A DNA stretch of 64,000 nucleotides from Clytia hemisphaerica. Lineage: Eukaryota. The translations under genes were made by a program, and so were the position numbers. The DNA is taken from the NCBI RefSeq assembly GCF_902728285.1, contig NW_027103286.1, positions 3,228,497 to 3,292,496 on the forward strand, written 5' to 3'. The number at the start of each line of letters is the position of its first letter. Position 1 is the stretch's first letter. The notes under the pieces are model-generated. The model was not told where the DNA came from. It ran no database searches and worked only from the letters and a program-made list of their open reading frames with translations. Below are positions 22,017-55,595 of this stretch, piece by piece.

Positions 22017-22850
22017 ATGAAAGAAATGACGCTGCCAACGATGCATAATTTGAACACGTCAGAATCTAACATTGTTGTTTGGAGAAAATGTACGCCTTTC
22101 TGTGATAAAACTGTCGAATGTCCTGAACATCATGAACTCTTACAAGCAATTGTAAATTGTACAGACCAATTAGGTCACTTATCGAACTTAGATGGCTTGA
22201 AAGCCTGTATAGAGAAATATCAGAGTATGGGTTGGGATCGGAATGATACCATCCCAGACCCTGTTGCTTCGAACAGGTTACCGTTGATCCACTGGGCAGC
22301 TTCTCTCGGTAAATGTAATGCTCTTGAGTGGATGCTAAGCAACGGATTCGATTCCACCGTTACGATAGGAAGTTTAACAGAAAACGCTTTGCACAGAACT
22401 ATATTATACCTTTATAAATCAAGGCCTAAATTTACAACGAAAGAACTGAAACCGAAATTCCGTAAAATATGTAATTTATTATCAAACTTAATGTATCATT
22501 CGGACTTAGGGAATGGAACTCCGTTACATTTAGCCGCTAGTTTGTTATGTAGCTCAGAGACCAGGCTAGTTTTCTTTCAAACAGCAATTGAAGTTATGGC
22601 CGCTCAGGCTAAGGAAATGAACGATTCGGATAGAATGGCGACTTTAGACGCTAAAAATAACGAAGGAAATACTTGTTTGCATATACTTGCTGGTGCTAAT
22701 GAGAAAATCAAAGTTGATCACGTTTGTACCGCCATTTCCGCCCTACTTCAATCGGGCGCTGATAAGACGATGAGAAATGCAAAGGATCAAACACCCTTGG
22801 ATATTGCCATTCAAAAAGGTTACAATAACGTCATCGATGAACTGGTCAAG
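22017..22850 (+). CDS. Ankyrin-repeat protein, exon 1 (278 codons from the ATG). It carries at least four ankyrin repeats: LPLIHWAASLGKCNALEWMLSNGFD, GNGTPLHLAASL…, NNEGNTCLHILAG…, DQTPLDIAIQKGYNNVIDELVK.
   Basis: Long ORF with ankyrin consensus blocks (TPLH.AA..G……LL..GAD). Donor GTCAAG|gtattg at 22850/22851. An acceptor-like cttttcgtttcag lies just upstream of the ATG, which suggests a 5'UTR intron. Confidence 0.8.
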
Positions 22851-23072
22851 GTATTGTTTGATAACTTTGAAATTTACTTTATCTGACATGTTCAACTCTT
22901 CGAATTGGCCGAATCCTGGACATAAATTGGTAACCTGAAACAATTAAAGTACTCCCCCTTATTGCATTATGGAATATACCTAAAAGAATTCTCCAATCTT
23001 TTCTAAAAATTATTAAGTCCAAAATTTTACGTTGACTTTTACTATGTTCTGATTTTCTTTTCTGTTTTTCAG

Positions 23073-23369
23073 ATAGTGAACCCATCAACGTCCTTGGTCA
23101 AAGAATCGCCTTCTTCGTCTACATCTCATCACGATTCACGCTCCCTCATGACCATGGTCGATATGCGAAGAGGTAGCCCGGTCTCCAACTCCATGATCAA
23201 TCTCAATCGCTCGGCATACGGTTACACGGAACGCAGGCGTTCACGCAGTCGTTCGCCCATTCGGTCACCGCGCTCTGAACGTGAACGCGAATCACCGCCA
23301 ATGGCCCACTCGAAGTATGAAGACTCAGCGAGGAACGGATTTCTCATTAAACAAGAGGACGAAAACGAA
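23073..23369 (+). CDS. Ankyrin-repeat protein, exon 2. It is S-rich and RS-rich (…ERRRSRSRSPIRSPRSERERESPPMAHSKYEDSARNGFLIKQEDENE), phase 0/0.
   Basis: Acceptor tctgtttttcag|ATAGTG at 23071-72. The frame is continuous with exon 1. Donor AACGAA|gtaggt at 23369/70. Confidence 0.7.
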
Positions 23370-23460
23370 GTAGGTTTCCTTAATTTTAAAGGCAGAAACC
23401 TTAGCGATTTTTTAGTTTTGGCTGCGAAAGTTTCTAACAAGCTAAGTAAAAATTCTTTTT

Positions 23461-25036
23461 GGACCTACCTAAGGTAGTCCTTTAAATTAACCCTTGTCCG
23501 TTCGTTCGTCCGTTCGTTCGTTCGTCTGTTGCCAGCTTTTCTCGGGATCGGCTCATTAGTTTTTTCTAATTTTTTGCACAATGATGCAAAATGGCAATGC
23601 CCAAAATGTGACGGAGCCCGATTTTCGAAAAAAAAAATTTCCGGCCGAAAATGGCGGAAATATGCCGGAAAAACTGGTTTTTCGGCATTTTCTCGAGATT
23701 TCATCATTAGTTTTTTCTGATTTTTTGCTCAAAGATGCGTATTAACAATGCCCAAAACATGGTCTAGTCCGATTTTTGAGAAAAAATTTTTTCCGGCCGA
23801 AAATGCCGGAAATATGCCGGAAATCGCCGTTTTTCTGGATTTTCATTGGACTTTTCCATATAATTGGTTGTTTTTTCATTCAAAAAGATTATCAATAGCA
23901 ATTCCCACCATCAAGCATGTTTCAATTTTCAATAAAATTGATTTTTGAAGCCGGAACTTTCTAAAAATCGCCGGAACAGCCGATTTTCGCCGGAAAAACG
24001 GTATTTCTTGAATTTCTTGAGCTGTACTTTATATTTTTTCATGAAATTTTGCACATTGATGCAAAATGTCAATGCCTAAATTGTGACGGAGCCTGATTTT
24101 CGAAAAAATTCATTTCCGGCCGAAAATGCCGGAAATATGCCGGAAAAACTGGTTTTTTGGCATTTTCTCGAGATTTCATCATTAGTTTTTTCTGATTTTT
24201 TGCTCAAATATGCGTATTAACAATGCCCAAAACATGGCCGAGTCCGATTTTTAAGAAAAATTTTTTTCCGGCGGAAAATGCCTGAAATATGCCGGAAATC
24301 GCCGTTTTTGCAGATTTTCATCGGACTTTTTCCTTATAATTGGTTGTTTTTTCATTCAAAAACATTATTAATAGCAATGTCCACCATCAAGCATGTTTCA
24401 ATTTTCAATAAAATTGATTTTTGAAGCCGGAGCTATTTAAAAATCGCCGGAACAACCTATTTTGCCGGAAAGACAGTATTTCTTGAATTTCTCGAGCTGT
24501 ACTTTATATTTTTTTATGAAATTTTGCACACTGATGCAATATGACAATACCTAAAATGTGACAGAGCCCGATTTTAGAAAAACATTTTTTTCTGGCCGAA
24601 AATGCCGGAAATATGCCGGAAAAGCCGGTTTTTTACATTTTCTCGAATTTTCATCAAAAGTTTTTTCTGATTTTTTGCAGAAAAATGCGTATTCCCAATG
24701 CTTAAAACATGGCTGAGTTTTTTTGATTTTTGAAAAAAATTTTTTTTTGGTTGAAAATGCCGGAAATCGCCGTTTTTGCAGATTTTCATTAGATTTTTTT
24801 CTTGTATTTCACTCAAAAACATTATTGATAACAACATCAAGCATGATTCAATTGTCAATAAAACTGATTTTTGCGACCAGAACTTTCTATTTATTTTTCC
24901 CCTACAACCCTTCCCTCTCCCCCATCAACAATCAATGATGAATTTATTGCGTTATGCATTTTCGCTAAACGATATACTTTTTGACTGATTTTTTTCTCCT
25001 CGCATTTCTATCCAACTTTCATCATCAGGTAGGTCC
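23461..25036 (+). mobile_element. GGACCTACC-family TIR element whose internal about 480 bp module is tandemly amplified about 3 times (23540-24900). It is inserted in intron 2 of the ankyrin-repeat gene.
   Basis: Left TIR GGACCTACC at 23461 and right CAGGTAGGTCC at 25026-36. The repeated units begin with …ttgcacaatgatgcaaaatggcaatgcccaaaatgtgacggagcccgattttcgaaaaaa…ccggaaatatgccggaaa…. Confidence 0.6.
23540..24900. repeat. Macrosatellite-like tandem array of about 3 units of 480-520 bp, derived from the GGACCTACC element's internal module.
   Basis: The units at about 23540, 24040 and 24520 share over 85% identity. Each carries the motif TTTCCGGCCGAAAATGCCGGAAATATGCCGGAAA twice. Confidence 0.7.
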
Positions 25037-29749: not shown

Positions 29750-29800
29750 CGTCTCGACGTCGAAAAGTCTAAGGAAGGTGTCTTCTGAGGCTGTCACCAC
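29750..29800 (-). CDS. WDR54: WDR54-like, exon 6 (VVTASEDTFLRLFDVET), phase 0/0. The intron on its upstream side (29801-31482) contains the whole GPCR gene on the opposite strand.
   Basis: Acceptor aatttgttag|GTGGTG. Donor GAGACG|gtaagtaaaac. Exactly 51 nt. Confidence 0.55.
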
Positions 29801-30211
29801 CTAACAAATTGGAAAGAGAAAAATTTGTTAAATTCTCATATTTTCTTTTGAAGAACGAGCCTGAGCTGCATCATTTTTGTGAGGATTATTGAGCTGAGAT
29901 TTAAATTGCTGTTTTAATTGACCTTTTCATAAATTACGTCACGAACATCACTTGCCTCGTTTTGAAATTATTGCCATGGTGATTAACTCCCAGTGAGTTT
30001 TATTAAAACTACTTTCTTTTTATTTATTCTTCTACCTCATATCTTAAAGAATTAATAAAGAGATTCGACGGTTTGTTTGTTTGTTTTTATCGGTATAAAG
30101 TAATTAGACATGAGTTTGTAGATTTATAACGAGTTCTTAGAATGATTCATAACATCACGTTCTGAAATCAAAGATTATATATGGAGAGACAAGTGAAATA
30201 TCGAGAACATA

Positions 30212-31225
30212 ATGAACAAGTCGCTCAGAGGTAATTCAACGTCCAAGATAATTGATAATGAACTTGCTCCATGCTGGCAAAGCAAATCACTTAAATATTT
30301 AAACCTGAGCTTTGGGCTATACAGTACTTTGATAACCATATTTGGAATTCCAGGAAACCTTTTCATTTGTTTTGTGATAATAAAGGGACAACTTTTGAAG
30401 TCATATCATTTTGTGTTCATCTTATGGTTAGCAGTTTCAGACTTGGTGACGTGTCCATTCCAGCTCCCTCTGGACGCTACAGCTTATTACACATATGATT
30501 GGGAAGAATATTTCATTTCTCCTGTATGGATTGTTTTTGTCAACGCTTTTTGGTATTTTTGTTTTGGTTGGACGATATTCATCCTATTTTTCTTAACACT
30601 GAATCGATTTTATGCAGTGAAGTACCCTCTCCGTCATTTGAGAGTTACCAGAAGTTTGATTAATAAATCTATGTTCGTGGCATTCGCATTATCGGCTGCT
30701 ATTTTCATATTTGCTTTTTTTATTCAAGACTATCCAGAGCCTGGGTATTACGACTTCTTAATGCCAAATTGGGCTGAAGGATTGCTCCTTGCTTTCTTAC
30801 TGCTACCCCTTTTCGCAAGTATGTTGCTGTACGGCTTCATTTTCGAGACTGTTCGAAAGCGACGCAGAGACGCTCAAAGGGAGAGCTCACTCCGTGGGAG
30901 GGTGACAGAAAATCGAATGTACATCACAATGATGTTTTTGGTGATTATCACTTGGCTTCCCTTCAGTATCTATCAAATATATATGCTTTTCGATACCCAA
31001 ATATTTTTGACCTGCACAGGCGAATCTATAGACTCCTTCTTGGCAGCCCTGATTAACCTGAATATTGTTGGCAATGCTTTTATTTATGGATATTCAAATG
31101 CTGTCTTTAGAAAGTATTTTAGAAAGATACCATGCTGCAAGCGACAGAATGATAATGATTGTGCAGTTGAATTGAATAGAATCAGATCAAATCTTTCAAA
31201 TAACGTTACTGAATGTGCCCCGTAG
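30212..31225 (+). CDS. Intronless class-A (rhodopsin-like) orphan GPCR, 337 aa. It has seven hydrophobic segments. NRFYAV replaces DRY at the end of TM3. There is a W..P in TM6. NAFIYGY replaces NPxxY in TM7. The tail is Cys-rich, consistent with palmitoylation.
   Basis: Single uninterrupted ORF. Its TM spacing and GN…LAVSDL…NRF…W.P…N..IYGY landmarks are diagnostic of 7TM rhodopsin-family receptors. It lies inside an intron of the minus-strand WD40 gene. Confidence 0.8.
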   Translation: MNKSLRGNSTSKIIDNELAPCWQSKSLKYLNLSFGLYSTLITIFGIPGNLFICFVIIKGQLLKSYHFVFILWLAVSDLVTCPFQLPLDATAYYTYDWEEYFISPVWIVFVNAFWYFCFGWTIFILFFLTLNRFYAVKYPLRHLRVTRSLINKSMFVAFALSAAIFIFAFFIQDYPEPGYYDFLMPNWAEGLLLAFLLLPLFASMLLYGFIFETVRKRRRDAQRESSLRGRVTENRMYITMMFLVIITWLPFSIYQIYMLFDTQIFLTCTGESIDSFLAALINLNIVGNAFIYGYSNAVFRKYFRKIPCCKRQNDNDCAVELNRIRSNLSNNVTECAP

Positions 31226-31482
31226 AATATAATTTTTAAGATATCTAGAGTTATATAGTGTAGACATTATTTTTCAAAAAATCGGAGCACCATCTCAAGT
31301 TCTTCAATCATAATAAATTTAATGAAAAACAAATGATGCAGACAAGGCTATGTGTCAAACTAAATGAATCACCTACAAATCAGTGAGGAACTTTGTTTTT
31401 TTTATTGTTCCACTTGATCGTTCAATATATTATCGAGAAATCTTTGTTATAAATGTTTCAAAAGAAGAAGTAATTGTCTTAC

Positions 31483-31645
31483 CAGTGTTCCGTCTTGTGA
31501 AAGGTCCATGGCGTTAATCCATTTAGCGTGCGCTGCAACTTCAACGATTATTGTTCCCGTCTTGCAGTTAAACTTTCGAAGGTGTCCAGAACCGTACGCT
31601 GCTATTATGAAGTTCTCGTGCAGTCGAACGCTCGTGCATGGAAAT
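31483..31645 (-). CDS. WDR54: WDR54-like, exon 5 (-FPCTSVRLHENFIIAAYGSGHLRKFNCKTGTIIVEVAAHAKWINAMDLSQDGTL).
   Basis: Acceptor ttatttatgtctag|ATTTCC. Donor ACACTG|gtaagac. The phase is consistent with exon 4, entering in phase 2 and leaving in phase 0. Confidence 0.6.
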
Positions 31646-32250: not shown

Positions 32251-32458
32251 CCAAAACCTTCAATTTCGAGCGTTTTGGTGACTGCTCCACCAACTTTCCA
32301 CAAAATGATTTTGCCCATATCATCTGCTGAAACCATACAATCATCCAGTGCATGTAAATCTGTCAATGCACATGTGTGTGCATTGATAGTGTCGTGTAGT
32401 TTAACACCATTTCCTTTTGAGGGAATATCGAAGACATAAATACTCCCATCCGCAGTTC
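32251..32458 (-). CDS. WDR54: WDR54-like, exon 4 (GTADGSIYVFDIPSKGNGVKLHDTINAHTCALTDLHALDDCMVSADDMGKIILWKVGGAVTKTLEIEGF-G).
   Basis: Acceptor ttttattttag|GAACTGCGG. The donor is chosen as TTTGG|gtaggc, since the alternative GAAG|gt breaks the phase with the next exon. Classic WD repeat signature (…GSIYVFD, …ILWK). Confidence 0.6.
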
Positions 32459-32653
32459 CTAAAATAAAATGGAAGCTTGATAGACAGCATTCCACAGTTA
32501 GGGAGCAGGGTTCATAGACCTATTTCAGTTTCAAATTTCATTTAAATTACTCCGACCCAATTGGCAATCCGACAAAAAGATCGAATTTCAATTAGCAAAT
32601 TTGAGACCTTAGAAATCAATGAAAGTAAAATTCAATCAACAATTCCTCCTCAC

Positions 32654-32774
32654 CAATACATATTCGATTATCACCAGCTGCAGTAATTCCTCTGACGAAC
32701 TGTGGTTTCCCTTCTTTAGGATGTGGCTGTAAGGCTTGCCAGAAAATCATCATTGACCCATTCTCATCAAACAT
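32654..32774 (-). CDS. WDR54: WDR54-like, exon 3 (MFDENGSMMIFWQALQPHPKEGKPQFVRGITAAGDNRICI-G).
   Basis: Acceptor ttttctttag|ATGTTTG. Donor TATTG|gtgaggagg. Phase-1 exit. Confidence 0.6.
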
Positions 32775-33003
32775 CTAAAGAAAATGAGGCTACGTTATAT
32801 ATCAACTAATAGGGGAACAGAGGAAAAATATCAATACCAAATACCATTTTATTACTAAATTAAGATTTTTCCCTTGATATTCCAGCTGTCTAAGATAGCC
32901 AATATAGTTTATAACATTGCCCTCAATGTTAGAAAGATAATCAAAAAGGTATCTAATGAACACAGAGACATAGGAGGATGTGAAATGGACAAAGGGAAAG
33001 TAC

Positions 33004-33189: not shown

Positions 33190-33405
33190 CTGCATGATGG
33201 TGGAGCTTGTTTGTGTGCCTTCTCCTTTACAAACAACCCTTCTGTATGCAGCTTGGTTGGTCTGTATTTCTTCTGCATCAAACACCCAAACGTTGGATTT
33301 GTGAACAACTGCATACTGAAGACCAGATGCAGATGAAAGGACATCTAGATTATTGTACAGCAGTGAAGCACTGGACTTTATTGACACTGCACTTTGATTG
33401 TACAT
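33190..33405 (-). CDS. WDR54: WD40-repeat protein (WDR54-like), exon 1 (MYNQSAVSIKSSASLLYNNLDVLSSASGLQYAVVHKSNVWVFDAEEIQTNQAAYRRVVCKGEGTQTSSTIMQ).
   Basis: ATG in a good context (aaaATGt). Exactly 72 codons, then donor ATGCAG|gtcagc at about 33189. The family assignment rests on overall similarity to WDR54 across all exons, recalled from memory and not searched. Confidence 0.55.
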
Positions 33406-33997: not shown

Positions 33998-34762
33998 TTA
34001 ACTCTCAATGTCAACATTTGCTGCAGAGGCAACATTAGAAACTTTCTGCACAATTCCAGATTGTAATAAAGAGACAGGTAGCATTGTAGCTCCACTCACA
34101 GCAGTCTTTTGTGGAGGAACAATAACTTGAAAACCTTGACTAGAAGCCATAATTGGAACACCTATAGCACCAGTGTTTCCAGCAGGGGCAATCGCAACAG
34201 GATTGCTCTGTCTGATTATAGTGTTCATGGGCGAATTGGATGTGAGAGCACTTAAGGATGAGGCATCAAGCCGAATTTTTTTGGTCATTTGTGTTGTGTT
34301 CATAGGTGTAGCTCCACGAATAGTCATCGTCTGATAAGGGCCTTTTTGTCCAATCTGACGTGGTGTTGTGGCAACTTTTATCTGTGGTCTCAACCCAACA
34401 ATGGTTGCATTTGTTACATTTGATGAGTTCAATGTCTGAATAGTTTGAAAATTGGTCCCAAGAGTTGAATTGATTTTCACAGAAGATGCACCTGCATTTG
34501 ATCCTTGAAGAAGAGCTTTCTGTCTCAGCACTAACTTTTGTTGCGCCGAAGCTTTGGAACGTACTTTGGTGCTGATTTTTTCTACTTCTGATCCAAACTG
34601 TTTGACAGCGGAGTGCAGCATATCAATTTCTTCATCACCCCATTTGCTATCTGTAGACCCCTTTTCTGCTCCGGGTTGCAAAGACATTGCCAGGTTACCC
34701 AGTTTGGTGAAAGATTCGCCAGCAGTCGTAAAGATTTCTGCAACTTTTCCAGCCTGTGCCAT
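33998..34762 (-). CDS. BAP18: BAP18-like (chromatin complexes subunit BAP18, C17orf49 family) SANT-domain protein, 254 aa, apparently intronless.
   Basis: The N-terminus MAQAGKVAEIFTTAGESFTKLGNLAMSLQP…SKWGDEEIDMLHSAVKQFGSEVEKISTKVRSKASAQQKLVLRQK matches the BAP18 pattern (KVGEIFSAAGAAFTKLGEL…KWTETEIEMLRAAVKRFG…). This is established family knowledge recalled from memory. The rest is a low-complexity S/T/N-rich tail. Confidence 0.7.
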   Translation of the reverse strand: MAQAGKVAEIFTTAGESFTKLGNLAMSLQPGAEKGSTDSKWGDEEIDMLHSAVKQFGSEVEKISTKVRSKASAQQKLVLRQKALLQGSNAGASSVKINSTLGTNFQTIQTLNSSNVTNATIVGLRPQIKVATTPRQIGQKGPYQTMTIRGATPMNTTQMTKKIRLDASSLSALTSNSPMNTIIRQSNPVAIAPAGNTGAIGVPIMASSQGFQVIVPPQKTAVSGATMLPVSLLQSGIVQKVSNVASAANVDIES

Positions 34763-53700: not shown

Positions 53701-54639
53701 TTGATTCAAGTACAGTATTTCAAAATGGATCAGGTTGGTTAGCGGGTGGAGAGTCAAGAGTCAAGAGTTTTATGACTTTCCCTTCTCTTGAAAATCCAAT
53801 GTTCCAAAACTTTCAACTAAAAAAATGCAAAAAAATCGTCTTTCGTCTTTTTTTATTATCTTATAAACACTTTTTTCAGAACCACAAGTGAAAAGAAAAG
53901 CAAAACTGACTGATTATGCTGCCAAAAAAGTGATTGACAGGTCTAGAAAATGATTGACAGGCCCGGGTTAGATATTTCCGTGAGCAATCTCGTTATATTT
54001 ATCAAAAAGTAATATACTTGTGGAAAGCCCAATTATTCTACTTTTTCGAATGCTGTGTCATGGAATTTTTTTAACAATTAAATAGAACGGGGTTTCCTCT
54101 GACGTAAACAAACCTCGAGTCCTATCCTGAAAATTGACATTGAGCGTAGAAAAAAAGACAAATGAAAGTATTTTCCTTTTTAATTCATATTTCCAATAAT
54201 TAAAGACTAACTTGAAAACACCAAGAGTGAAATGTAGCGAAATGCTTAGAACTCCTTGCGACTTAGAATTTTTTTTCAAAACTGAAAATTTGACCCCGGC
54301 TCGAACTACCAAAGTCTCTTGTCAATGATTCTGAGTCCGGCACGCTAGCAATGTACTATCGAGCCGATACAAAAACGTATACAAAATTGGTCAATTTAAA
54401 AATCCTTATAAAAACACTACTGCATATACGGGTGAACTGACCTCATGGGCTAGGCTAACTGTTTAGATCAATTACATACTCCAGGCTCCGTAAGGTTCCT
54501 TATTATAATTGAAAAAGCGTATACTAACAAACGATACGGAACTCGTGAGAGTGTTTTTAAACCGTTGTCTTTGTTTATCTTCACAAGATTTTGTTTATCT
54601 TTGCGACTTAGTTCTCGTTTTCGGCCTTTCGTCTACTCG

Positions 54640-54880
54640 TTTTCAGCCTATCACCTTCGATTTCAGCCTCCCGACTCCCGCCTCCCAGCTTTCGTTTTCA
54701 GCCTCCCGCCTCCCACTTTCAATTTCAGCCTCCCGCCTCCCACTTTCGTTTTCGGCCTCCCGCCTCCCACTTTCAATTTCAGCCTCCCGCCTCCCACTTT
54801 CGTTTTCAGCCTCCCGCCTCCCGTCTCCCACTTTCGATTTCAGCCTCCCGCCTCCCGGCTCCCGGTTCAGCCTCCCGAAA
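54640..54880. repeat. Minisatellite of about 30 bp, 8 units (TCAGCCTCCCGCCTCCCACTTTCGATTT).
   Basis: Tandem copies with small variations. All three ORFs across it (54509-54922, 54565-54891, 54643-54831) are repeat artefacts. Confidence 0.8.
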
Positions 54881-55595
54881 TTTCGGATTAGGTCTAAACC
54901 ACCATCATTAGAAGAACGTTAATTTAGACGTACAAAGCTATCGAAAGCAGAAACTTTCGTAAAGTCAAAAATACGCAGGTTGCAAAGTAAAAAGTCTGAA
55001 AACAAATCACGCTTTTACTCGAAATCTTTATGTGTTTGTTACATGACATTTATTTCTGATTGATTCGAATTTATTGACACTAATTAAAGTTATCAGCTGT
55101 AAGTTGTAAAGCAAGTAACATGGGGGGGGGGGTTCAAGGGGCACTGAATACCGAAATACCGGCAATATTTTCCCGAATTTCCATCAACTGAATTGTTGAT
55201 GAAATGAGGAGTAAGGGATACACTGTTTATCAGACGAACGATCTAATTTCCAAGTGCAAATAGCATAGAAGATAAAGTTTAATTACTGACAAAGTGCAAC
55301 CATGCTTTCTGTCGACCGAAGAAAATTTTGATTTCAACACTTTCTTATTTGGCTAAAAGCATTATGTTTTAGAATGGTTTTACTATTGTAACTAAGTACC
55401 TCAAAAAGCTCTTTTTATGGATAATTCTTTAGTTCTAATTTGAGAATTAGGCAGTACCTATCCCATCACCTTCCTTTGAGAAAAGGGCAATAACATGGTT
55501 GCTTGGCCAAGATTAGGGAGTCAAATCAAAAAAACATTTAAACAAAATAATGCGAGCGAAGAGAGCGCGAAAAATTTGTGCTAATTTACAGGTCC

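Follow-up and report, generated by a model that had tools for sequence, protein, structure and literature searches.

In the present work, we examine a receptor gene nested within the WDR54 gene of Clytia hemisphaerica. The window is the whole stretch of 64,000 nucleotides that was analysed, and all coordinates below refer to it. On its minus strand lies a WDR54 gene of seven exons, and within the fifth intron of this gene, on the opposite strand, there is a complete reading frame for a predicted class-A G-protein-coupled receptor (GPCR). Along the direction of transcription of the host gene, the features are as follows.

33405-33190 (coding), minus strand: WDR54 exon 1, with the ATG at 33405 and the exon extending to at least 33445 (5' UTR according to the transcript L001)
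33066-33004, minus strand: WDR54 exon 2 (splice model and L001)
32774-32654, minus strand: WDR54 exon 3 (splice model and L001)
32458-32251, minus strand: WDR54 exon 4 (splice model and L001)
31645-31483, minus strand: WDR54 exon 5, 163 nt (splice model, PF21031 match and L001)
31482-29801, minus strand: WDR54 intron 5, the host intron, 1,682 nt, phase 0, GT-AG (splice sites and L001; position conserved)
30212..31225, plus strand: putative class-A orphan GPCR, complete single-exon coding sequence of 337 aa plus stop (ORF, Pfam, AlphaFold2 and paralog)
29800-29750, minus strand: WDR54 exon 6, 51 nt, encoding VVTASEDTFLRLFDVET (splice model and L001)
29512-29378 (coding, including the stop), minus strand: WDR54 exon 7, with the 3' UTR reaching to at least 29260 (splice model and L001)

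All introns of the seven-exon model are of the GT-AG type and the frame is unbroken. The 318-aa product is identical to the C. hemisphaerica protein XP_066920080.1 (318/318 residues, 100%) and matches the WDR54 profile PF21031 at 7-331 of 334 with E=5.3e-59. The host gene is confirmed to be a genuine WDR54. Two sequences considered as genomic comparators, P0005 and P0007, turned out to be intronless WDR54 copies from marine metagenomes, which are uninformative on the intron, and they were set aside.

Several WDR54 transcripts are present among the JGI contigs. One of them, L001, aligns from 33445 down to 29260 with 97.6-100% identity to the window, in seven blocks that correspond to the seven exons, while 29801-31482 is skipped. 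With its 1,114 nt, it is too short to represent unspliced genomic sequence. Since L001 joins 31483 to 29800, the exons on the two sides of the receptor are parts of one mRNA. The first-pass annotation raised the possibility that the WD40 exons on either side come from different genes; this spliced contig, together with the identity to XP_066920080.1, rules it out. WDR54 is transcribed through the receptor on the opposite strand, and the receptor is spliced out with the intron.

The central claim of the earlier reading, a complete single-ORF class-A GPCR lying antisense in an intron of a WDR54-like gene, holds to the base. The intron extends, as claimed, from 31482 to 29801, and the flanks, previously given as about 400 and about 250 bp, measure 411 and 257 nt. 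The whole receptor coding sequence lies within this one 1.68-kb intron, of which it makes up 60%, and the flanking exons 5 and 6 are joined in L001. In conventional terms, the arrangement is an ordinary host/nested gene pair in C. hemisphaerica. An Rfam search of the intron gave no match, and a non-coding RNA at this location was rejected.

The junctions are known from one assembly, and one could therefore imagine that the receptor segment had been wrongly joined into the WDR54 intron. However, the sequence is gap-free through both intron ends, where proper splice signals are found, and the parts of the intron that flank the receptor have an intron-like composition (27-30% GC, typical of introns here). 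Furthermore, the GC3 of the receptor, 0.402, is matched by that of the host, 0.398, which indicates that the composition of the receptor is native. An assembly artefact is on these grounds barely credible.

The reading frame is much longer than those found in shuffled sequence. When the intron was shuffled 500 times, the longest ORF was 59 aa on average and at most 170 aa, compared to the 337 aa observed, and the chance of 337 codons staying open at this base composition is ca 2e-11. An in-frame stop is located 5 codons before the ATG. The product matches the Pfam profile 7tm_1 (PF00001) over its full length (profile 1-260/260, residues 48-292) with 77 bits and E=2.2e-21, the gathering cut-off being 30.5 bits. 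The AlphaFold2 model (pLDDT 80.8, pTM 0.78) has seven long helices followed by helix 8 at 297-305, and Foldseek matches it to many class-A structures with TM-scores of 0.65-0.71 and a probability of 1.00.

The class-A microswitches N1.50, D2.50, R3.50, P5.50, Y5.58, W6.48, P6.50, N7.49 and Y7.53 are all present (among them N49, D77, R132, W248, P250, N288 and Y292 in the numbering of the receptor). Variant residues are found in the N-R-F at 3.49-3.51, with an N at the functional microswitch 3.49, and in the A at 7.50; a residue other than Pro at 7.50, A or another, is common to the whole family. The nested receptor keeps 21/21 of the family-invariant residues. At columns where the members otherwise agree it has one private change, compared to 0-5 in the other members, and at residue 203 it has S where 9/9 other aligned members have N. 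Judged by its sequence and its structural model, the nested ORF looks like a real receptor gene.

The nearest known relative is the Clytia paralog XP_066933269.1 (P0188/P0038), located on a different contig, with 55% identity, and a second Clytia paralog, XP_066933286.1 (P0041), has 29-32% identity. Both are annotated as 'histamine H2 receptor-like' and are found on a 2.27-Mb contig, whereas WDR54 is on one of 3.97 Mb. All three share a C-W motif in the N-terminal region, the sequence T-C-x-G-E-x-x-D-S ahead of TM7, and N-A/x-x-x-Y instead of NPxxY, and all lack a Cys at 3.25. The paralogs differ from the nested copy in having D/E-R-F instead of N-R-F, and in being annotated, while the nested copy seemingly is not. 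The 'histamine H2 receptor-like' match was also considered as an ortholog, but this was rejected, since the host is Clytia's own WDR54 and the match is thus a paralog. A word-indexed homolog search with the receptor returned nothing useful, and missed even the paralog with 55% identity; as its list of candidates is limited in length, it is uninformative on closer relatives.

As to the class of the receptor, it has the same 7TM fold and microswitch residues as the bilaterian peptide and amine class-A GPCRs (somatostatin, opioid, bombesin, adenosine A2A, beta-adrenergic and histamine H2), to which it is 17-22% identical with no subfamily standing out. Its sequence E-values against bilaterian receptors range from 2e-12 to 1e-8 (2e-12 for SSTR4 and 1.4e-8 for H2R), and the structural matches to opioid, A2A, beta-adrenergic, CCK and H2 receptors are equally good. 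The 'orphan' label of the first-pass annotation is thus a fair one, the receptor being equally distant from all the receptor subfamilies compared. It differs from the bilaterian receptors in the A for P at 7.50, in lacking the Cys of the TM3-ECL2 disulfide, and in position 3.32, where the amine-binding Asp of aminergic receptors is replaced by W114, nearly invariant in the family. Because it has W and not D at 3.32, the receptor is not aminergic. Many but not all class-A receptors have the Cys3.25-ECL2 disulfide; in the nested receptor position 3.25 is Ile107, and the family has an invariant C21 in the N-terminus and C268 before TM7. The family to which it belongs is small and apparently hydrozoan-restricted.

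The public Clytia protein sets apparently lack the receptor. The exact protein is absent from a collection of 15 billion proteins in which the Clytia RefSeq and EukProt proteins are included, and also from a contig index, where other Clytia proteins that were looked up are likewise unmatched. A scan of the JGI contigs gave no relative or transcript of the receptor, although WDR54 transcripts are present there, and the nested receptor is missing from a set of 536 Clytia GPCRs from the transcriptome. It is important to point out that the last absence was downgraded as a sign of silence after a control with P0041. This RefSeq paralog is also missing from the 536-GPCR set, and the sole family member in it has normalised counts of at most 16, so the absence of a receptor transcript is weak evidence.

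These absences bear on the scenario of a silent or recently inactivated duplicate, which would have no effective regulatory sequence, would be unexpressed, and would be open only because its inactivation is recent. Such a copy would agree with the absence from every protein and transcript resource queried, and with the apparent lack of annotation despite a host protein that is 100% identical to its RefSeq entry. The changes from D/E to N at 3.49 and from N to S at position 203 can be read in the same way, as can the room of only about 400 nt for a promoter. The ORF is, however, intact, at the low probability given above, despite 45% divergence from the nearest known relative, and the conservation of the family-invariant residues is complete, with private deviations no more numerous than those of other members. 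In addition, the whole family is barely detectable in transcriptomes, the annotated paralog being missing likewise. We consider a silent duplicate to be unlikely.

The first-pass annotation proposed that the receptor carries its own promoter and terminator within the host intron. Two hexamer matches are relevant here:

30094..30099, plus strand: TATAAA, candidate core promoter element, 118 nt upstream of the receptor ATG (inferred from the hexamer match)
31312..31317, plus strand: AATAAA, candidate polyadenylation signal, 87 nt downstream of the receptor stop (inferred from the hexamer match)

Going by these hexamers, a promoter and a terminator of its own are plausible. Transcriptional interference between the receptor and WDR54, also suggested earlier, would be speculation. 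A more specific version is that the gene encodes a functional receptor of the Clytia lineage, and that its transcription and the transcription or splicing of WDR54 exclude each other in any given cell, constituting an antisense switch. Such mutual exclusion could arise because the receptor promoter would be located no more than about 300 nt from the host's branch point and 3' splice site; we regard it as quite improbable.

The position of WDR54 intron 5 is conserved in other cnidarians, with lengths of 246 nt in Hydractinia, 1,288 nt in Actinia and 4,818 nt in Hydra. The WDR54 orthologs of these species (XP_057306405.1 in Hydractinia) have about 50% protein identity, the same phase-0 intron after exon 5, and the same mini-exon 6 of 17 codons. 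In Clytia, Hydractinia and Hydra alike, WDR54 has a BACC1-like gene upstream of it, which shows that the loci are positionally orthologous. Unlike that of Clytia, intron 5 of Hydractinia, Actinia and Hydra contains no GPCR detectable by tblastn at E<=1, and no long ORF. The conserved position of the intron and the absence of the receptor elsewhere indicate that the receptor was inserted into an already old intron, on the branch leading to Clytia. The comparison covers Hydractinia, Hydra and Actinia and no other leptothecate, which leaves the age of the insertion without a bound on the near side. Considering that the Hydractinia intron is only 246 nt, most of the present Clytia intron is the guest gene.

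How the copy arrived is a separate question. The first-pass annotation favoured retroposition, in which the mRNA of a paralog would be reverse-transcribed and inserted in the intron, with a promoter gained later. The coding sequence is indeed intronless and the nearest paralogs are on a different contig. Furthermore, a direct repeat is found near both ends of the intron, which could be a target-site duplication:

29816..29830, no strand assigned: left copy of the direct repeat, 15 nt, located 15 nt inside the acceptor end; weak candidate for an insertion-site duplication
31435..31449, no strand assigned: right copy of the direct repeat, 15 nt, located 33 nt inside the donor end

The two copies match at 13/15 positions, with a post-hoc shuffle p of ca 0.013-0.021. 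There is also an A-rich patch at and just after the AATAAA, with 13 A in 20 nt. It does not constitute a poly(A) tract, however, as the longest downstream run of A is 5 nt, and there is no A-rich stretch next to the repeat copy at 31435, where the tail of a LINE-mediated retrocopy would be expected. About 300-400 nt of upstream non-coding sequence including the TATA hexamer speak against this route as well, since a retrocopy normally brings no promoter. Finally, P0039, P0044 and P0046, on ENA contigs of 8 kb-1.1 Mb, are each a full-length single ORF, and these single-ORF relatives on metagenome contigs suggest that intronlessness may be a trait of the family. In a single-exon family, a copy made at the DNA level would look the same, and the lack of introns thus says little on the origin. 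With no poly(A) remnant either after the AATAAA or beside the only candidate flanking repeat, and with relatives that are apparently single-ORF, the retroposition origin is unsupported and we judge it doubtful; the copy may have arrived at the DNA level, by duplication or insertion, or by retroposition. Two inverted repeats that flank the receptor, I2 (16/19) and I22 (10/10), were also considered as transposon ends and rejected. Matches of this kind would arise by chance in AT-rich DNA of 1.9 kb, and I22 is moreover wrongly placed relative to the candidate direct repeat.

The reading that we prefer, with a probability of roughly 0.7, is the conventional nested pair, in which an ancient intron gained a complete single-exon GPCR that is likely an independent gene of low expression. 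According to this reading, the phase-0 intron of WDR54 would have acquired a complete class-A receptor copy in the lineage leading to Clytia, after its split from the lineages of Hydractinia and Hydra. The receptor would most likely be transcribed independently, weakly or in a small number of cell types, from a promoter in the approximately 400 nt that precede its ATG, with polyadenylation in the approximately 250 nt downstream. The product would be a functional orphan 7TM receptor, with a ligand that is not predictable.

The main value of the finding lies in the annotation, as there is apparently one more intact class-A orphan GPCR in Clytia than the public sets show. If the functional-receptor reading is true, the gene sets would have missed it because it is antisense in a small intron. 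The locus also illustrates cleanly how a short and ancient intron can take up a gene. Single-exon GPCRs and nested antisense intronic genes are commonplace in animals, and the nesting of the receptor in WDR54 reveals no new mechanism.

In the introduction of PMC3786989, with reference to the reviews of this class by Kumar 2009 and Assis et al. 2008, nested genes located antisense in introns are described as common in metazoans and generally viewed as neutral insertions, and the Drosophila gene 2mit, nested in an intron of timeless2, is given as a case. Compared to such metazoan nested genes, the Clytia receptor is so far known from its sequence, and its host intron of 1.68 kb is very small relative to the long introns that the literature presents as the usual niche. 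In other respects the Clytia pair resembles 2mit/timeless2 and the other metazoan examples. The whole coding sequence is contained in one intron of a host gene unrelated to it, in the opposite orientation, and is removed by splicing, and the nested gene is likewise lineage-specific, with no obvious functional link to its host.

The WDR54 host gene was assembled from the minus-strand reading of the window, which gave seven coding exons with GT-AG at every intron and an unbroken reading frame:

33405-33190, minus strand, WDR54 coding exon 1 (exon assembly, as for all rows)
33066-33004, minus strand, WDR54 coding exon 2
32774-32654, minus strand, WDR54 coding exon 3
32458-32251, minus strand, WDR54 coding exon 4
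31645-31483, minus strand, WDR54 coding exon 5
29800-29750, minus strand, WDR54 coding exon 6
29512-29378, minus strand, WDR54 coding exon 7

The 318-aa product matches positions 7-331 of the 334 in Pfam profile PF21031 (E=5.3e-59), and its best database match (P0001, 99% identity) is encoded on L001, a 1,114-nt JGI transcript contig. Aligned to the window, L001 gives seven blocks that coincide with the seven model exons at 97.6-100% identity, and 29801-31482 is skipped. The WD40 exons on either side of the GPCR are thus proven, at transcript level, to be parts of a single mRNA, and the alternative raised in the first-pass annotation, that they represent two genes, is thereby excluded. The P0001 cluster includes Clytia hemisphaerica XP_066920080.1, to which the model is identical at 318/318 positions; the window is therefore Clytia sequence and the host its annotated WDR54 gene.

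L001 (JGI sample 3300032617) has 99-100% identity in most WDR54 exons and 97.6% only in exons 3 and 4 (window 32251-32776), which may reflect transcripts of wild Clytia, or of a near relative, and a local rise in polymorphism. Four further WDR54 variants of at least 90% identity are present in JGI and Logan data.

We now turn to the nested reading frame, which was confirmed in the window sequence at 30212-31225 on the plus strand (337 aa). It is not a chance ORF, since the longest ORF in shuffles of the 1,682-nt intron averages 59 aa and reaches at most 170 aa, and the probability of 337 open codons at the intron base composition is ca 2e-11. An in-frame stop lies 5 codons 5' of the ATG and the N-terminus aligns with those of full-length relatives; the ORF is therefore a complete single-exon coding sequence. 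The WDR54 introns measure 123, 229, 195, 605, 1,682 and 237 nt, the GPCR-bearing one being the outlier, and the GPCR coding sequence takes up 60% of it, so that 411 nt of intron remain 5' of the GPCR and 257 nt 3' of it, close to the 400 and 250 bp first estimated. The proposed layout, an orphan GPCR nested antisense in a WDR54 intron, is thus supported, with exons and coordinates matching exactly. The GC3 of the GPCR (0.402) equals that of the host (0.398), and its composition is therefore native.

Elsewhere in the window, a 289-aa ORF (22017-22886, plus strand) contains ankyrin repeats (Pfam Ank_2, E=5.6e-10), and 3' of it lies a Ser/Arg-rich 133-aa ORF (23076-23477, plus strand); the two may be exons of one gene. 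The ORF at 54509-54922 (plus strand) consists of repeated SASRLPLS(I/F) units without a Pfam match, and is probably a tandem DNA repeat, not a gene.

The assignment of the nested ORF to class A is borne out by a match to the whole Pfam 7tm_1 profile (E=2.2e-21, 77 bits, cut-off 30.5). Of 1.84 billion representative proteins searched exhaustively with HMMER, 882 matched, only 8 of them at E<=1e-30. The nearest relative, XP_066933269.1 (55% identity, labelled 'histamine H2 receptor-like'), is a Clytia protein and therefore a paralog; a second Clytia paralog, XP_066933286.1, has 29-32% identity. Both paralogs are located on a 2.27-Mb contig, and WDR54 on a 3.97-Mb contig. The other relatives (27-38% identity) are unnamed proteins of ENA, JGI and Logan assemblies.

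In a ten-member family alignment, the nested GPCR keeps 21/21 invariant residues and has one private change (N to S203) at columns uniform in the other members, which themselves have 0-5; there is no sign of relaxed constraint. It contains the class-A microswitch residues N1.50, D2.50, R3.50, P5.50, Y5.58, W6.48, P6.50, N7.49 and Y7.53. Positions 3.49-3.51 read N-R-F, compared to the class-A norm D/E-R-Y/F, the N at 3.49 being private and D/E elsewhere in the family. Position 7.50 is A and is non-Pro throughout the family (N-A/x-x-x-Y, not NPxxY, 288-292), and Cys3.25 is missing from the whole family, the nested copy included (protein position 107). The family also has invariant cysteines at the N-terminus (C-W motif, position 21) and just before TM7 (T-C-x-G-E, position 268), and this pattern suggests a disulfide from the N-terminus to ECL3 that would replace the canonical TM3-ECL2 one.

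The AlphaFold2 model, calculated from the family alignment, is confident (pLDDT 80.8, pTM 0.78) and has seven long helices and helix 8. Somatostatin, opioid, bombesin, CCK, adenosine, adrenergic and histamine receptors are all about equally far from it in both sequence and structure (17-22% identity, TM-score 0.65-0.71), so the ORF is a genuine class-A GPCR whose ligand class is not assignable. With W at 3.32 (residue 114), the nested GPCR lacks the Asp3.32 of aminergic receptors, and nothing specific therefore speaks for the 'histamine H2-like' label of the paralog.

For comparison, WDR54 loci were taken from three other cnidarians: Hydra vulgaris (L002), Actinia tenebrosa (L003) and Hydractinia symbiolongicarpus (L008). 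A BACC1-like gene is found directly upstream of WDR54 in Hydra (L002 8859-9533) and Hydractinia (L008 7806-8468), and also in Clytia, where a single ORF (33998-34762, minus strand, 254 aa) adjoins WDR54 on the same strand, with 43% identity to the Hydractinia protein (E=3e-54) and no significant Pfam match. Judged by this gene order, the WDR54 loci are positionally orthologous among hydrozoans, the BACC1-like neighbour being conserved hydrozoan microsynteny. Hydra, Actinia and Hydractinia share with Clytia both the phase-0 position at which exon 5 ends and the 17-codon mini-exon 6 next to it.

Intron 5 of WDR54 in four cnidarians
Clytia hemisphaerica, 1,682 nt, GPCR inside
Hydractinia symbiolongicarpus, 246 nt, no GPCR inside
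Actinia tenebrosa, 1,288 nt, no GPCR inside
Hydra vulgaris, 4,818 nt, no GPCR inside

With tblastn the GPCR has no match at E<=1 in the three loci, which contain no long ORFs besides the WDR54 exons. In the related-species check suggested in the first-pass annotation, the intron position is kept in 3/3 species and the GPCR lies within it in 0/3. Intron 5 is therefore ancient, and the GPCR entered in the lineage to Clytia once this had diverged from those of Hydractinia and Hydra.

WDR54 homologs ca 51% identical to the Clytia protein also occur as intronless ORFs on marine metagenome contigs of 4.7-8.5 kb, including one Tara Oceans sample:

L004, 2165-3139, intronless WDR54 homolog
L005 and L006, 790-1761, intronless WDR54 homologs
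L007, 657-1628, intronless WDR54 homolog

The genes next to them also consist of single ORFs, one being DENN-like, and the source organism appears to have few introns.

As to how the GPCR arrived, the sequence following the AATAAA at 31312 has no poly(A) remnant, with no run of A longer than 5 nt. A 15-nt direct repeat with 13/15 matches has its copies at 29816-29830 and 31435-31449, 15 nt from one end of the intron and 33 nt from the other. Repeats this good occur between intron ends in 1.3-2.1% of shuffles. The test being post-hoc, the repeat is no more than a weak candidate for an insertion-site duplication; were it one, the ancestral intron would have measured ca 63 nt. No A tract adjoins its 3' copy, though LINE-mediated retroposition would need one. 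On metagenome contigs of genomic size, family members are present as complete single ORFs; intronlessness would therefore be a family trait and would not separate retroposition from DNA-level duplication. Retroposition into the WDR54 intron, the origin proposed initially, is thus unsupported, but not refuted.

The exact GPCR protein has no entry in a 15-billion-sequence collection, which holds Clytia RefSeq and EukProt proteins, or in the contig index, and no GPCR relatives are found in JGI contigs, though several Clytia-like WDR54 transcripts are present there. Among the 536 GPCRs of the mixed-stage Clytia transcriptome of PMC7053711, 0/6 eight-residue peptides of the nested GPCR were found; as a positive control, the motif NIVGNAFIYG, which is shared, was recovered once, in TCONS_00040078, which resembles XP_066933269.1. 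This partial sequence is the only family member in the set, with normalised counts of at most 16 in all tissues and a peak in gonozooids (PMC7053711 supplementary files 2 and 14), and the RefSeq-annotated XP_066933286.1 is also missing. The missing GPCR transcript therefore carries little weight, and these data imply family expression at very low level or in rare cells. Candidate signals near the GPCR are two bare hexamers, TATAAA at 30094 and the AATAAA at 31312. The host strand of the intron itself contains five AATAAA hexamers, and L001 nonetheless shows the host spliced to full length. We infer that the GPCR may have an autonomous promoter and terminator, and that it and WDR54 may interfere transcriptionally.

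The main use of the finding is an annotation correction for Clytia. Class-A GPCRs encoded by a single exon are common. The arrangement is mildly unusual in only two features, namely the small host intron and the seeming absence of the GPCR from current Clytia protein sets; owing to the former, the guest has little room for regulatory sequence, with a putative promoter at most ca 300 nt from the host 3' splice site. According to PMC3786989, with reference to Kumar 2009 and Assis et al. 2008, nested intronic protein-coding genes account for ca 6% of Drosophila, ca 2% of C. elegans and ca 0.5% of human genes, lie antisense to the host in most cases, and are generally seen as neutral insertions with little host-guest co-regulation.
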